The translations under genes were made by a program, and so were the position numbers. DNA of 32,247 nt. Origin: an uncultured archaeon (GTDB lineage Archaea; Asgardarchaeota; Heimdallarchaeia; Heimdallarchaeales; Kariarchaeaceae). Below, piece by piece: positions 5,374-27,948 of this stretch. Numbering within the stretch: position 1 is the first letter of the stretch; each line of letters begins with the position of its first letter. The notes beneath the pieces are model-generated. The model searched no databases, was not told where the DNA came from, and was given only the letters and a program-made list of their open reading frames with translations. The stretch lies in assembly GCA_964645535.1 (NCBI GenBank), contig CAZYCQ010000020.1:16433-48679 (forward strand). Reading direction: 5' to 3'.

Positions 5374-5706
5374 ATGAACACCCGTGAGTTTTCTCCGAGT
5401 CCTAAGTTACCTTCAAATGAAACCTCCTTTTCATTTTTCTCCATACGAACAACAGGGTCATCCTTTTCGCAAGGTACCTTGCGTCTTATCCTTCAATTGC
5501 TCATATCTCATTACGACATCCAGCGGTATACGCTTGAAAAAGAAAAAATGACTCTTGTTATAACTAAGCTTCCAAGAAAACAGACAAGGCAAATAGAGCA
5601 AATCATTGATTACATCAGATACAAACTCCTTACTTCAGTGGATGAATTTGCGTTGCTGGAAGAGATCAGAAGAAAAATGTTGGTTGGTGAGCCCCATGTT
5701 GAATGA
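5374..5706 (+). CDS. Hypothetical protein (110 aa)
   Basis: ATG 31 nt after the start of TTTATATA (5343). Overlaps the next ORF start by 11 nt. Confidence 0.6.
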   Translation: MNTREFSPSPKLPSNETSFSFFSIRTTGSSFSQGTLRLILQLLISHYDIQRYTLEKEKMTLVITKLPRKQTRQIEQIIDYIRYKLLTSVDEFALLEEIRRKMLVGEPHVE

Positions 5707-6148
5707 AATCATCTTCTCGTCAGCAATCATTTTGTTTTTGATGATGGTTCGTTCAAATTCATCAAAAGAGGAAAATGAAAGTCTCCTGAAAGTCAAGCAA
5801 CACTTTTCCCCTTACGGAAAATACTCGCAAGTTGATGGAAAATTTTATAGAAGCAACGCAGAAGCAAAAATTGCGCGTTTCCTTACCAAACGCAATATAA
5901 AGTTCATCTATGAATTTCCAATAAAGAAAACCAAATTTAAGACAGATTTCTATCTTGTTGACTATGACATCTATGTAGAATACTGGGGGCTGACAGATTT
6001 ACAAAACCGGGATGGTGATAGATATCGTGAAACTCATCGCCGGAAAATACGAATTTACCAAACTTTGGGTCTAAATCTCATCTCCATCTATCCCAAGGAT
6101 TTAAATCATCTCCCTCGAATCTTCCAGCATATCACTTCATCCCCTTGA
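5696..6148 (+). CDS. PD-(D/E)XK superfamily (Vsr/DUF559-like) nuclease with N-terminal hydrophobic anchor
   Basis: 'RSNAEAKIARFL...YE...TDFYL...IYVEYWG...Y....RK...Y' nuclease signature. N-terminal 'IIFSSAIILFLMMV' hydrophobic segment. In-frame ATG at 5696. Confidence 0.75.
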   Translation: MLNEIIFSSAIILFLMMVRSNSSKEENESLLKVKQHFSPYGKYSQVDGKFYRSNAEAKIARFLTKRNIKFIYEFPIKKTKFKTDFYLVDYDIYVEYWGLTDLQNRDGDRYRETHRRKIRIYQTLGLNLISIYPKDLNHLPRIFQHITSSP

Positions 6149-6173
6149 ATTTACTCTACATTTCGTTTTTGAT

Positions 6174-6189
6174 TTTATAAAACTATTTT
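6174..6189 (+). promoter_or_regulatory. TATA box upstream of the radA-like gene
   Basis: TTTATAAAACTATTTT starting 37 nt before ATG 6211. Confidence 0.5.
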
Positions 6190-24663: not shown

Positions 24664-24768
24664 TAGCGACTATTTATTTTTTGGTACAAAAAAGATGGGG
24701 GCTTTGAAGGAGATCGTTTCAATTTTTATCATTTCATCTTTATATTCTTAATTCTGACAGATAGTTTA

Positions 24769-27700
24769 ATGCAAGTCAAGATCTTGACGAAATTTGATGG
24801 ACCTAAGTTACAAAACGCTCTTCCCCTCTCCCTCATTGAGGAAAACAGTCGAAAAAATATTCTATTCAGATTATTCCTCTTTGATTTCACTAAACTTGAC
24901 AATGCTCCCCAGAATTACCGACCGAACACGATCAACCCTGATGGTACAATTATGCAGACTCAATTTACAAGTAAACTCAGGAAAGCTATTAAGTACCTCC
25001 TTGAACTAAAGGAAAAACATGAAACAAAAGATCTGAGAATTCGCTTTCACTTTTTGGTTTTTCCAGAGAGTCCTGAATATCGCCATCTTGTTCTTGCCAT
25101 TTCCATTCTTTCAAGCATAAGTTCTGAGCTTCGTGGGTTGATTACTTCTCTAAGTAGATATTGCACATTTTCTGTTCAGGCTCGGCGTTTGCAGAAAATA
25201 ATATCGCTGACCAGATCTGTTGATTCAGCTCAATTACCATACTTTTCTATTCAAATGGATCAAATCGCCAAAATTGTTCCGAAACACTGTGTTCGTAAAT
25301 TGACTATTTTTGAATTAACTGCACTTTTCGAAAACTTTCAGTTTCCCCAATCCACTCAACCCAGTTCTCCCCTATCAATCAATGAGGGTCTTCTCTTCGC
25401 AAAGGATTCCTCAGAAAACAATACGTCCCTCCCTGGATTCAATAAAATCTTACTTCGGGGTGGTGGCTGTGCTCTTCATGTTCCATTAATTGAATCCCCA
25501 ATTCTCCCTCAAAACCATATTCTTCTCACAAAAAATGCTCAATTCTTCAGGTCATACGCAGAAGAAAACCCTGATATTGCAGCAACTAGACGTTTCTCAT
25601 TTATTTCAGCAAGGAAAGTGGGTGTCAATCTACTAAAAATCATGCAACAAGATCCTTTATTCGCCATCCGAGTTTTCAGGTCTTGGTTGCTTCTCACCGA
25701 TTACCATCCTTCACTTTTTGATACTGCTTTTCACCTTGTTGAAAACTTAAGAACTCTGCCTTTTGAACAGGTCAATAGCTTCTATGACCTCTTACGGTTT
25801 AAATTCAATGTCTTGAATGGGTTAAGCATTGTTGAATCCTATTTGGATCGATTTTTGTTGGCATTTGAGGAAATCCTTTCCCTTCCTTTTTTTTCAAGTG
25901 AAAATGATGAGGAATTAAAAACTGGAGGTTTAGTGATCCTTGACTGTTCTTCCATCAAAAATCCAATTCATGTCTTGGCAATTGGAATGGTTTTGCATCA
26001 ACTTAGAGTATCAGGATACCACAACTACTCTTTAACCATTCCTGGTTGGAATCATCTCAAAAAGGATGGTTTTGCCTTTCACAACCTCAAGTCATATTTT
26101 GGGAATTTGCATTTTCACCAATTCTTCACCGTCTTTTCTTGTTCAACTGATTTCTCCCCTCTCTCAGAAATCTGTGATATTGTCATTGAAGAATATTCTT
26201 CTTTCCTGAAACACAATCCTCATCGCGCTCGTTATATTTATGCAAATTCAGATAGCCTTATCTGTTCCATTATTGGTTCCTCTTCATTTATTATTGGTCG
26301 TCCATCATTGGATTGGATTGATGAAATGGAGAATATCAAGGTACATTGGAATCTTGCATCTCTACCGTCAAGTCAAGAGGAAATGGACTATGATTCAATC
26401 GATGCGGAACCAGATCTTAAAACCTATCAGGAATTTGAAAGAGATTATTTCAAATGGGTCATTTCATACAAACTTTGGATTTCTTCTCCACTGACTTTTG
26501 AGGAAATTATGGATGAATTGGATCTCCTCCCCATATCGTCCCAAACTCTTGAAAACATCTTGAATGAACTTGTCGAAGACGAGTTGGTTCTTTATGATGG
26601 GCAATTGCATTATTCCCTTTCAAATAAAGTTCGGACAACCATGATGACAATTGAAAAGAATCATTTTGAACTTTCTCCACTTACATCCGAGGAAATCAAC
26701 AAACGAAAAACCGAATACGAACAAATGGATTATCTTAGAAAACAAGTTTCCCGTATTATTTCCATCAATGATATCCGCAACTTAGCAAATGACATTTATC
26801 TTTTCTGTAAGAATAACCCTCGTCTTGAACGGTATTCTGGCTTATTCTTTGCTTTTCTAGTAGAATTTGGATATAACCGTCACCAATTAAACCCAAAAGC
26901 AACAGAAATTGTCAAGCAACTTCTAAAAGAAAACATAGAGAATATGTCAAAAACTCTTTCTGACGATGATTTTGATGTCATCAAGGAAATGGCGGATGAA
27001 GATGTCTATTCTGAAGAAAATATGGACTCTGATGATCTTGAAAAAGTTGCTTTGTCTACTGAACAACTACCTGATCTTCCCGCAAGTCTTGAAACTGGTT
27101 TTATCCCTGATCAAAAAGAAAACCTCCCTCCCTCGGAGAATGGCACTCAAAAACAAGATGATGAATTTCAAAACTTATCTGCCGTAAAAGATGATGATCT
27201 TGATTGCTTTCAAGCTGTAGATCTACATATCCAGAAATATCTGCCATTAGAGAAGTCATCCCCTGACTTTCTGAAATTGGTCAAAAATATTATCAAATTG
27301 CCAAAACTTGAGGACAATGCAGTACTGCCATCAACAACTCCTGTAGGTGGCACAGAACGTTCACAAAATCAAAACAAAAATGGGCAAAATCCAACAAAAG
27401 ATTCATCATCAATAAAAGTGGCCTCAATTCCTAAACCTCCATCATCCTTCCGTATGAAGGATTCTATTGAACGGGCTGCAATTCCCGCTTCACCTGCAAA
27501 AACCAATAATATGGTCATGAAAGATTCCCTGGATCAAGTAGTTGATTACGATTCATTAGACCTTTCTATTTCCAGTGAATTCATTGAAAGTGTGGATCTC
27601 CAATTTCAAAGTGTGGCACATCAGCCTCCTGATCAAGTAATGATACGGTTATTCAATGAATGCTTCATTTACCCAATCACTGAAAAACGATTCTACAGAC

Positions 27701-27948
27701 CTCTCCCTGAAATTGTCGATATTCTTTCTGAAGTAAGCAATACTTGTAACATTTCAATTCAAGAATTTACAAATGAATTGGCTCAGAACCTAGAATATTG
27801 GAAGAAATTTGATTCACTGGAACAACGCAAGGAAATCATGAAACAAATTGTTGCAAAATTCAAATTTGCATTGGAGAATTTTCATTACAGCCATTCATTT
27901 AGGGAATTGTTAAGAGAAAAGATCATTGGTAATCCTGTCAAGGGATAA
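24769..27948 (+). CDS. Large hypothetical protein (1059 aa); probable degenerate VirB4/HerA-like domain plus winged helix and acidic low-complexity tail (paralog of 12164..15397)
   Basis: 'GVNLLK', 'SFYDLL', 'PFFS...LVILDCSSIKNP', and wHTH 'PLTFEEIMDEL...TLENILNELVEDELV...YSLS'. TATA-like TTTATATT starts 30 nt upstream. Confidence 0.55.
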   Translation: MQVKILTKFDGPKLQNALPLSLIEENSRKNILFRLFLFDFTKLDNAPQNYRPNTINPDGTIMQTQFTSKLRKAIKYLLELKEKHETKDLRIRFHFLVFPESPEYRHLVLAISILSSISSELRGLITSLSRYCTFSVQARRLQKIISLTRSVDSAQLPYFSIQMDQIAKIVPKHCVRKLTIFELTALFENFQFPQSTQPSSPLSINEGLLFAKDSSENNTSLPGFNKILLRGGGCALHVPLIESPILPQNHILLTKNAQFFRSYAEENPDIAATRRFSFISARKVGVNLLKIMQQDPLFAIRVFRSWLLLTDYHPSLFDTAFHLVENLRTLPFEQVNSFYDLLRFKFNVLNGLSIVESYLDRFLLAFEEILSLPFFSSENDEELKTGGLVILDCSSIKNPIHVLAIGMVLHQLRVSGYHNYSLTIPGWNHLKKDGFAFHNLKSYFGNLHFHQFFTVFSCSTDFSPLSEICDIVIEEYSSFLKHNPHRARYIYANSDSLICSIIGSSSFIIGRPSLDWIDEMENIKVHWNLASLPSSQEEMDYDSIDAEPDLKTYQEFERDYFKWVISYKLWISSPLTFEEIMDELDLLPISSQTLENILNELVEDELVLYDGQLHYSLSNKVRTTMMTIEKNHFELSPLTSEEINKRKTEYEQMDYLRKQVSRIISINDIRNLANDIYLFCKNNPRLERYSGLFFAFLVEFGYNRHQLNPKATEIVKQLLKENIENMSKTLSDDDFDVIKEMADEDVYSEENMDSDDLEKVALSTEQLPDLPASLETGFIPDQKENLPPSENGTQKQDDEFQNLSAVKDDDLDCFQAVDLHIQKYLPLEKSSPDFLKLVKNIIKLPKLEDNAVLPSTTPVGGTERSQNQNKNGQNPTKDSSSIKVASIPKPPSSFRMKDSIERAAIPASPAKTNNMVMKDSLDQVVDYDSLDLSISSEFIESVDLQFQSVAHQPPDQVMIRLFNECFIYPITEKRFYRPLPEIVDILSEVSNTCNISIQEFTNELAQNLEYWKKFDSLEQRKEIMKQIVAKFKFALENFHYSHSFRELLREKIIGNPVKG

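Follow-up and report, generated by a model that had tools for sequence, protein, structure and literature searches.

Ced, found in Sulfolobales and Desulfurococcales, and Ted, found in Thermoproteales, are DNA-import systems defined by CedA/VirB6, CedB/VirB4 and the CedA1/VirB2 pilin (PMC9905601, PMC11868833); Ted loci adjoin HerA and Rad50, and a TFB paralog controls the Ced and HerA operons (PMC9905601). Here we describe a locus of 14 plus-strand genes and one minus-strand polytopic membrane gene (23560-24663) at positions 5374-27948 of a 32,247-nucleotide stretch of Heimdallarchaeota DNA, hereafter the window, which forms the 3' two-thirds of contig C20 in a 3.6-Mb genome (G000, 89% complete) and opens with genes for aRF1, GINS and PCNA. 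In this locus, a nuclease, RadA, PolB1 and XPD stand among surface proteins, membrane proteins and derivatives of VirB4/HerA, KaiC, M50 and Hel308 that have lost their catalytic motifs; folds were obtained for two of the orphan proteins, the genes are co-located in relatives, and the RadA belongs to a dedicated clade. We read the locus, tentatively and at somewhat less than an even chance, as a chromosomal, vertically inherited Asgard system that would bring DNA through the membrane, either taken up or exchanged between cells, and recombine it into the chromosome, resembling Ced and Ted in its working with different parts.

This reading fits best because surface, membrane and VirB4-fold proteins, a superfamily 2 (SF2) helicase, a nuclease and a dedicated RadA recur together, the membrane and surface genes being always paired with recombination enzymes in the locus. 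The strands, open reading frames (ORFs) and sizes of the co-oriented block, with its single exception, are as given in a preliminary description of this DNA, although neighbouring genes overlap at only about five junctions rather than at many. ORFs are named below by their start coordinate within the window (12164, for example, is ORF 12164..15397). G001, G002, G003, G006, G007 and G008 are genomes of relatives and L040 is a Logan contig; f1 is the window's own family, f2 its sister family, and other f-numbers label further families. The features of the locus are as follows.

5374..5706, plus strand: 110-amino-acid (aa) protein of unassigned function, in closest relatives only (G002 and L040; absent from the G003 locus)
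5696..6148, plus strand: membrane-anchored PD-(D/E)xK nuclease, motifs intact, with an N-terminal transmembrane (TM) segment
6211..7491, plus strand: RadA paralog of a locus-specific clade, with the signature GHASD and DCGWL and intact Walker A and B
7609-7632 and 7721-7744, plus strand: two copies of a 24-nt repeated motif, core GGACAAAATT, candidate regulator sites
7790..7797, plus strand: TATA-like box that precedes ORF 7871 by about 73 nt and is conserved in L040, G002 and G003
7871..10960, plus strand: 1029-aa tandem KaiC/RecA-fold pseudo-enzyme by its folded model, without the Walker A lysine
11091..12128, plus strand: surface protein with a signal-peptide-like N-terminus, a C-terminal TM anchor (TM at 313) and syntenic homologs
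12164..15397, plus strand: predicted VirB4/HerA-fold pseudo-ATPase that has lost Walker A, with an N-terminal alpha/beta domain, a helical tail and probably a winged helix
15441..15794, plus strand: small hydrophobic protein with one or two TM segments, candidate VirB3-like anchor of 12164 from complex prediction
15781..16311, plus strand: polytopic membrane protein, probably a second dead M50-like paralog, motifs in register with the 21473 family
16311..18875, plus strand: PolB1 (Dpo1-type), intact extra copy with all exonuclease and polymerase motifs and a C-terminal PCNA-interacting (PIP) box
18925..20805, plus strand: XPD/DinG-family iron-sulfur (Fe-S) helicase, intact extra copy by its motifs, candidate motor
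20792..21448, plus strand: 218-aa soluble protein, RecA-like fold by eye, not confirmed
21473..22222, plus strand: M50-like membrane pseudo-peptidase, HExxH lost, the best marker gene of the system
22222..23550, plus strand: degenerate Hel308-like protein that retains the SWIM zinc finger and winged helix but not the motor motifs
23560..24663, minus strand: polytopic membrane protein with a soluble C-terminal domain, membership in the system uncertain
24769..27948, plus strand: second VirB4/HerA-like pseudo-ATPase by Atlas features, with a probable winged helix and an acidic linker

The three ORFs of about 1000 aa have no meaningful Pfam match, and the orphans gave no matches in Pfam, PDB sequence profiles or PADLOC. 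Structure prediction confirmed 12164 as a putative VirB4/HerA protein with a dead P-loop, its top Foldseek match being VirB4 over about 590-670 columns, which extends beyond the ATPase core alone; DndH and HerA-DUF4297 were also among the fold matches. The folded model likewise confirmed 7871 as a predicted dead tandem KaiC/RecA-fold protein, in which residues ~112-346 possibly form TFB/TFIIB-like cyclin repeats (a weak match); this protein is split into two ORFs in G003. Atlas matches of its residues 440-1029 to viral RNA polymerases (~120/256 features) were set aside as chance, the folded model being KaiC-like. Family evidence and Atlas features (0.94, with 181/256 shared and the ten best family-assigned matches all in one clan) supported 24769 as a second VirB4/HerA-like protein, for which hhalign against HerA gave P 6% only, and profile comparison gave no link between 12164 and 24769 as paralogs (P 0.2-0.3%). 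The motif GxxGxGK[ST] occurs in no member of alignments A1 and A2, nor in the f2 and f6 counterparts.

Catalytic motifs have also gone from the M50 and Hel308 derivatives. HExxH, the zinc motif, is absent from the window's M50-like copies, while members P0026 and P0028 of the 21473 family keep it (best Pfam M50 E 0.0097 and M50B E 0.01, individually weak), supporting the assignment of 21473 as a putative dead M50. Comparison of 15781 with this family gave a weak hhalign P of 4%, and a homolog of 15781 lies in the equivalent f2 operon. The Hel308-like 22222 aligned with the f2 operon's intact Hel308-SWIM helicases at hhalign P 92% and E 7e-7. Thus, of the seven pseudo-enzymes proposed at the outset, five are supported (12164, 7871, 24769, 21473 and 22222), whereas 15781 is weak and 20792 unconfirmed, its RecA-like assignment gaining no support against the RadA and RadB-like families (hhalign P ~1% or less). 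Complex prediction placed the small hydrophobic protein 15441, whose polar C-terminal part is conserved, on 12164 with a score of 0.59 against 0.00 for the best control, and the placement was lost upon replacing 12164; runs agreed in at least 61% of contacts, with a partner predicted local distance difference test (pLDDT) value of at least 60. Scores of this type are reached by 7/80 solved complexes and by both passing mismatches, and are more often wrong absent prior support, so that this contact is rated weak.

The four enzymes described as catalytically intact were borne out for the PD-(D/E)xK nuclease, RadA, PolB and XPD, and the locus RadA, PolB1 and XPD are intact spare copies. The nuclease most likely starts at 5696, where its homologs begin. 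The locus RadA (Pfam Rad51 E 5e-36) keeps Walker A (GKPQMGKT) and Walker B; its FxxA polymerisation motif is lost and the canonical loop 1 (YxGRxxL) altered, both being present in the copies at C20:5728 and on C5. It may therefore be a mediator rather than a filament-forming recombinase. In a quick tree, the clade carrying GHASD and DCGWL united f1, f2 and f4 at a Shimodaira-Hasegawa-like approximate likelihood ratio (SH-aLRT) support of 96 with a genus stem of 1.23, f6 joined weakly, and f24 and f25 fell elsewhere. Canonical-type radA genes, 79% identical to each other, lie on C20 (L030:5728-7026, 15.6 kb upstream of the locus) and at C5:40123-41394, and at least four further RadA paralogs are encoded in the genome. 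The locus PolB, whose best PDB match is Sulfolobus Dpo1 (1s5j, E 7e-146), falls within a clade of extra PolB1 copies (support 83/100, stem 1.18 changes per site); canonical polB1 is on C55 and a PolB2-like gene on C83. PolB1 is an accessory part, missing at its position in G001 and G003; in G009 (L025:2471-4807) an extra PolB1 is broken by stop codons. XPD 18925 retains Walker A, DEAH, four candidate Fe-S cysteines and motif VI, is 79% identical to the L040 copy, and has three other XPD-like counterparts elsewhere in the genome. The check that the preliminary description had proposed, for radA, polB and xpd elsewhere in the genome, thus found all three, and the branches leading to the locus RadA and PolB1 are long.

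As far as the accessible text of Matsuo et al. (2025) goes, RadA was duplicated with a second clade in Heimdallarchaea and Gerdarchaea, and the treatment is phylogenetic, with no gene context or function, and places Rad51 and DMC1 outside all archaeal RadA clades (PMC12722695). The locus RadA may be this second clade, a candidate match, and is not a DMC1 ortholog because both eukaryotic proteins fall outside.

Matches of the nuclease to PADLOC PD-(D/E)xK models (PDC-S69, E 4e-16; a second at 2.5e-11) and of XPD to type IV DinG models of CRISPR (clustered regularly interspaced short palindromic repeats; E 2e-54), together with DndH and HerA-DUF4297 among the fold matches and a CRISPR array abutting the G003 locus, would suit an anti-virus or anti-plasmid defence built from HerA-like scaffolds, helicase and nuclease. 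We consider this improbable: the PADLOC matches reflect generic nuclease and helicase folds while the other parts match no PADLOC model, no complete gene set of any defence system described in PADLOC occurs at the locus, and near-universal, mostly single-copy presence in f2 (28/31) and f6 (12/12) is unlike patchy defence loci.

Conserved synteny in Asgard relatives, likewise proposed as a check, was found, with co-location beyond chance. Gene order is the same in G001, G002, G003 and L040 and largely so in G007 (four genus relatives and one other genus), and G006 and G008 carry shuffled versions. The proteins are conserved, and the locus genes are under purifying selection; synonymous sites are saturated, hence the ratio of nonsynonymous to synonymous substitution rates (dN/dS) was not computable. 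The 23560..24663 gene occurs in L040, with a homolog (E 7e-6) in the loci of G015 and G020, which match the chromosomes, both complete, of Ca. Heimdallarchaeum aukensis PM71 and H. endolithica PR6, and is not in the G002, G003 and G007 loci. The predicted folds, co-location in relatives and canonical copies elsewhere are the reverse of the three outcomes that the preliminary description had named as fatal to it.

Its terms "island" and "mobile element" did not hold. GC content is 37.3% within the locus and 38.6% and 37.9% on its two sides; no integrase was found on contig C20 or near the G003 locus, no tRNA and no terminal or attachment (att) repeats at the locus, and no relative carrying the RadA signature among the IMG/VR matches; position is fixed within the genus, and the RadA and PolB gene trees broadly follow host kinship. 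A mobile or recently domesticated integrated element would account for VirB4-like ancestry, for rapid divergence and shuffling between families, and for a partial second copy of both dead ATPase genes on C90. Given the evidence of position, composition and descent, it is largely refuted and the least probable of the explanations considered. The C90 (L028) copy, at 799-9388, is a shortened pair with 33-38% identity to the window's genes, head to head with a further XPD and an orphan of 573 aa on a contig of 45% GC (38% for C20), and could be either a mobile copy or contamination from binning.

Beyond the genus, about 20 genomes of f2, including both complete Heimdallarchaeum chromosomes, have all or part of one operon. 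Its products are a surface protein, an immunoglobulin (Ig)-like membrane protein, a homolog of 15781, an ATPase of RadB/KaiC-like type, a small protein resembling nucleases, a dead HerA/VirB4 of 1050 aa (P 49%, E 2e-4 against HerA), a Hel308-SWIM helicase that is intact, the RadA paralog and an Ig-repeat protein of 2100 aa. The gene for the 2100-aa Ig-repeat protein, a surface protein, has the orientation of the locus in G003, G015 and G020, and in about 15 f2 genomes it comes directly after the RadA paralog gene. The f2 homolog of 21473 lies 3' of a protein with weak similarity to the N-terminus of 7871 (P 12%, E 0.002), in the same block in Heimdallarchaeum or elsewhere in the genome. Family f6 combines both M50-like genes with a RadB-like ATPase, Hef, a nuclease-like protein and a dead HerA-like protein (P 87% to that of f2). 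The M50 marker was detected in 104/400 Asgard genomes, among them f1 7/11, f2 28/31, f3 1/1, f4 3/3, f6 12/12, f24 7/7 and f25 5/5, with weaker matches in f12 (11/19) and f20 (21/135), some of which may be other M50 proteins. It was found in none of 22 genomes of f5, a family of the same class, which also gave no close member of the RadA clade.

This last result bears on whether the locus is a scaffold for chromosome-membrane tethering or segregation, in which dead ring ATPases with winged helices would anchor recombining or replicating DNA at adhesion sites. The winged helices themselves, the weak resemblance that the f2 one shows to AspA, a segregation protein (E 0.22), and the adjoining PCNA and GINS genes would agree with such a role; the AspA match is not significant, however, the PCNA/GINS neighbourhood is confined to the genus, and absence from f5 is unexpected of a core segregation function. 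We regard this scaffold as quite unlikely, if slightly less so than defence.

In several distant Asgard loci the marker keeps HExxH and lies near an extra RadA, RadB-like, Hef, Hel308/XPD, surface proteins or a divergent TFB, TFB paralogs of this kind (P 98% to TFB) being near the marker in four distant genomes. A 312-aa protein of f24 and f25 was considered as VirB4-like and was unsupported by profile comparison. These loci favour, above the other alternatives, a membrane-tethered module for DNA-damage signalling and repair with no DNA crossing, in which an M50 intramembrane protease (dead here, a scaffold), RadA/RadB-like sensors and a TFB paralog would activate spare repair enzymes: intact HExxH beside a RadB/KaiC-like ATPase, divergent TFB, extra RadA and Hef, with no VirB4-like gene detected, would suit such a module, XPD, Hef, Hel308 and PolB1 are repair enzymes, and the TFB-like/KaiC-like fusion and repeated promoter motif fit regulation. 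In the window, the 380-bp gap (7492-7870) before 7871 holds its own conserved promoter-like region, which indicates at least two transcription units. Related copies of the 24-nt motif lie in the corresponding gap of L040, G002 and G003, and the window's two copies are the only strong intergenic sites in the whole genome, a match on C7 having been rejected as lying inside an ORF; sigma-70 promoter and terminator scans stayed at chance level. The motif was not found before other repair genes of the genome, however, and damage signalling leaves unexplained the two maintained VirB4-fold proteins, the RadA-Ig-repeat coupling and the anchored nuclease. We judge it unlikely, although it is the main rival; if true, the locus, a conserved machine in which five or more pseudo-enzymes are maintained, would represent a new kind of DNA-damage response in archaea.

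Under DNA uptake or exchange coupled to recombination, the Ig-repeat and other surface proteins would serve cell contact or DNA binding, the two M50-derived proteins and the small hydrophobic protein would form a membrane platform, and the dead VirB4/HerA proteins a non-catalytic ring gripping DNA via its winged helices. Force might come from an SF2 helicase (in this locus XPD, elsewhere among the families Hel308-SWIM or Hef), as ComFA supplies it in Gram-positive competence, or from a HerA-type ATPase encoded elsewhere, and intact HerA-type ATPases are indeed encoded elsewhere in the genome. The anchored nuclease would trim DNA, the RadA paralog load or assist strand invasion, PolB1 fill gaps on PCNA, and the TFB-like/KaiC-like protein with the repeated upstream motif control expression. 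In favour of this reading count the VirB4 match of 12164, the dead HerA/VirB4-like proteins kept in f2 and f6, the weakly supported contact of 15441 with 12164, the Ig-repeat protein beside the RadA paralog, and the TFB paralogs near the marker in distant genomes, which recall the TFB link of Ced. Searches of five genomes, including two complete ones, turned up neither ComEC nor TrbL, so that no uptake channel is recognised in these cells.

Several points weigh against uptake or exchange. Every functional step is inferred from gene content, and neither a channel nor a pilin nor an active translocase was identified. No VirB4/HerA protein with an intact P-loop occurs in any locus copy examined. 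No CedA/VirB6 channel was recognised (the TrbL model was blank in the five genomes, and CedA itself, which only profile comparison can detect, was not used as a query), nor a CedA1/VirB2 pilin, 15441 not having been compared with pilins. No M50 fold is known to conduct DNA. A VirB4-like gene beside the marker was not detected in f24, f25 or more distant Asgard loci, and the window genome's own 2100-aa Ig-repeat gene is at the start of contig C7 (C7:2-6307; E 3e-208 to the G003 locus copy). A wider form of the hypothesis is a widespread Asgard chromosomal DNA exchange in which a decayed ring like that of type IV secretion systems, together with membrane proteins derived from M50 and adhesins with Ig repeats, would supply DNA to an SF2 helicase and a dedicated RadA as a contact-dependent, parasexual route. 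It is possible and more doubtful than the narrower one.

Asgard archaea are the closest prokaryotic relatives of eukaryotes. Their means of DNA uptake or exchange, a question still open, bears on gene flow and on how sex arose at eukaryogenesis, and the locus is a concrete candidate for it; the locus provides a marker family, the dead M50, and a possible gene context for the second RadA clade of these lineages. The two complete Heimdallarchaeum chromosomes come from enrichments and carry the system, making induction and interaction tests possible, and more distant Asgard families offer the version with an intact M50.

Some variants and neighbours were also recorded. The version at G006:C25 (L023/L038) has two RadA paralog copies, XPD, PolB1 and a small GTPase, and an Arf/Rag-like GTPase is present in the f25 M50 locus. 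G015 (L072:13411-15219) encodes, upstream of its RadA paralog, an inactivated helicase of Hef-like type (602 aa), f6 and f20 have intact Hef genes in the locus, and a 2.85-Mb contig (L168:7026-13418) has a minimal set of three genes for a 994-aa dead HerA-like protein, an M50 with intact HExxH and a Hel308-like helicase. In G003 (L031:11000-14500) the CRISPR array, of about 50 repeats with a 30-nt repeat and a 66-nt period, lies directly 3' of the Ig-repeat gene at the locus end. The PCNA-GINS operon is headed by a 115-aa protein (4941-5288, minus strand) without a Pfam match, conserved in G002, G003 and L040 and by eye an oligonucleotide/oligosaccharide-binding (OB) fold like a small RPA subunit. 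The 3' genes at 28038-32014, for a membrane protein with a zinc ribbon, an alpha/beta hydrolase and a 4Fe-4S protein, look unrelated, the first two flanking the locus in G001 too.

Gram-positive competence uses ComEC, ComFA, NucA/EndA and RecA, and like it the locus would couple an anchored nuclease, an SF2 motor and a recombinase to a membrane complex, but no ComEC was found here and no homology was shown for the other parts. The archaeal PolB2 operon with inactive RadA and bacterial ImuA-ImuB-DnaE2 place a spare polymerase beside RecA-fold pseudo-enzymes, with no membrane parts. The locus too has such a pairing, yet compared with the PolB2 operon its polymerase is of PolB1 type, optional and with proofreading intact, and the PolB2-like gene of the genome lies elsewhere, on C83. 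Fusexin-carrying integrated mobile elements encode Xer recombinases, and their HerA/VirB4 ATPases lie in loci tied to cell contact (PMC9259645); the locus has HerA/VirB4 proteins in common with them, but no integrase and no recognised fusexin. No description of this gene set was found in the searchable literature, from which most subscription journals were excluded, and the terms RadA, VirB4 and helicase do not occur in the main text of Wu et al. 2022 (PMC8813620). This is a conserved, real Asgard gene system that is apparently undescribed. With Ced and Ted it has in common a chromosomal setting, two VirB4/HerA-fold proteins (compare CedB and CedD), membrane proteins both small and polytopic, recombination genes nearby and a link to a TFB paralog. 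Unlike them, it carries a RadA paralog, an SF2 helicase, a PolB1, a nuclease and surface proteins with Ig repeats of its own, both of its VirB4-like proteins are without a P-loop, its polytopic proteins are M50-derived rather than CedA/VirB6, and no pilin was shown. Because the VirB4 fold, in dead form, is the only defining part in common, we do not class the locus as Ced or Ted; by analogy, it may nevertheless work like them.

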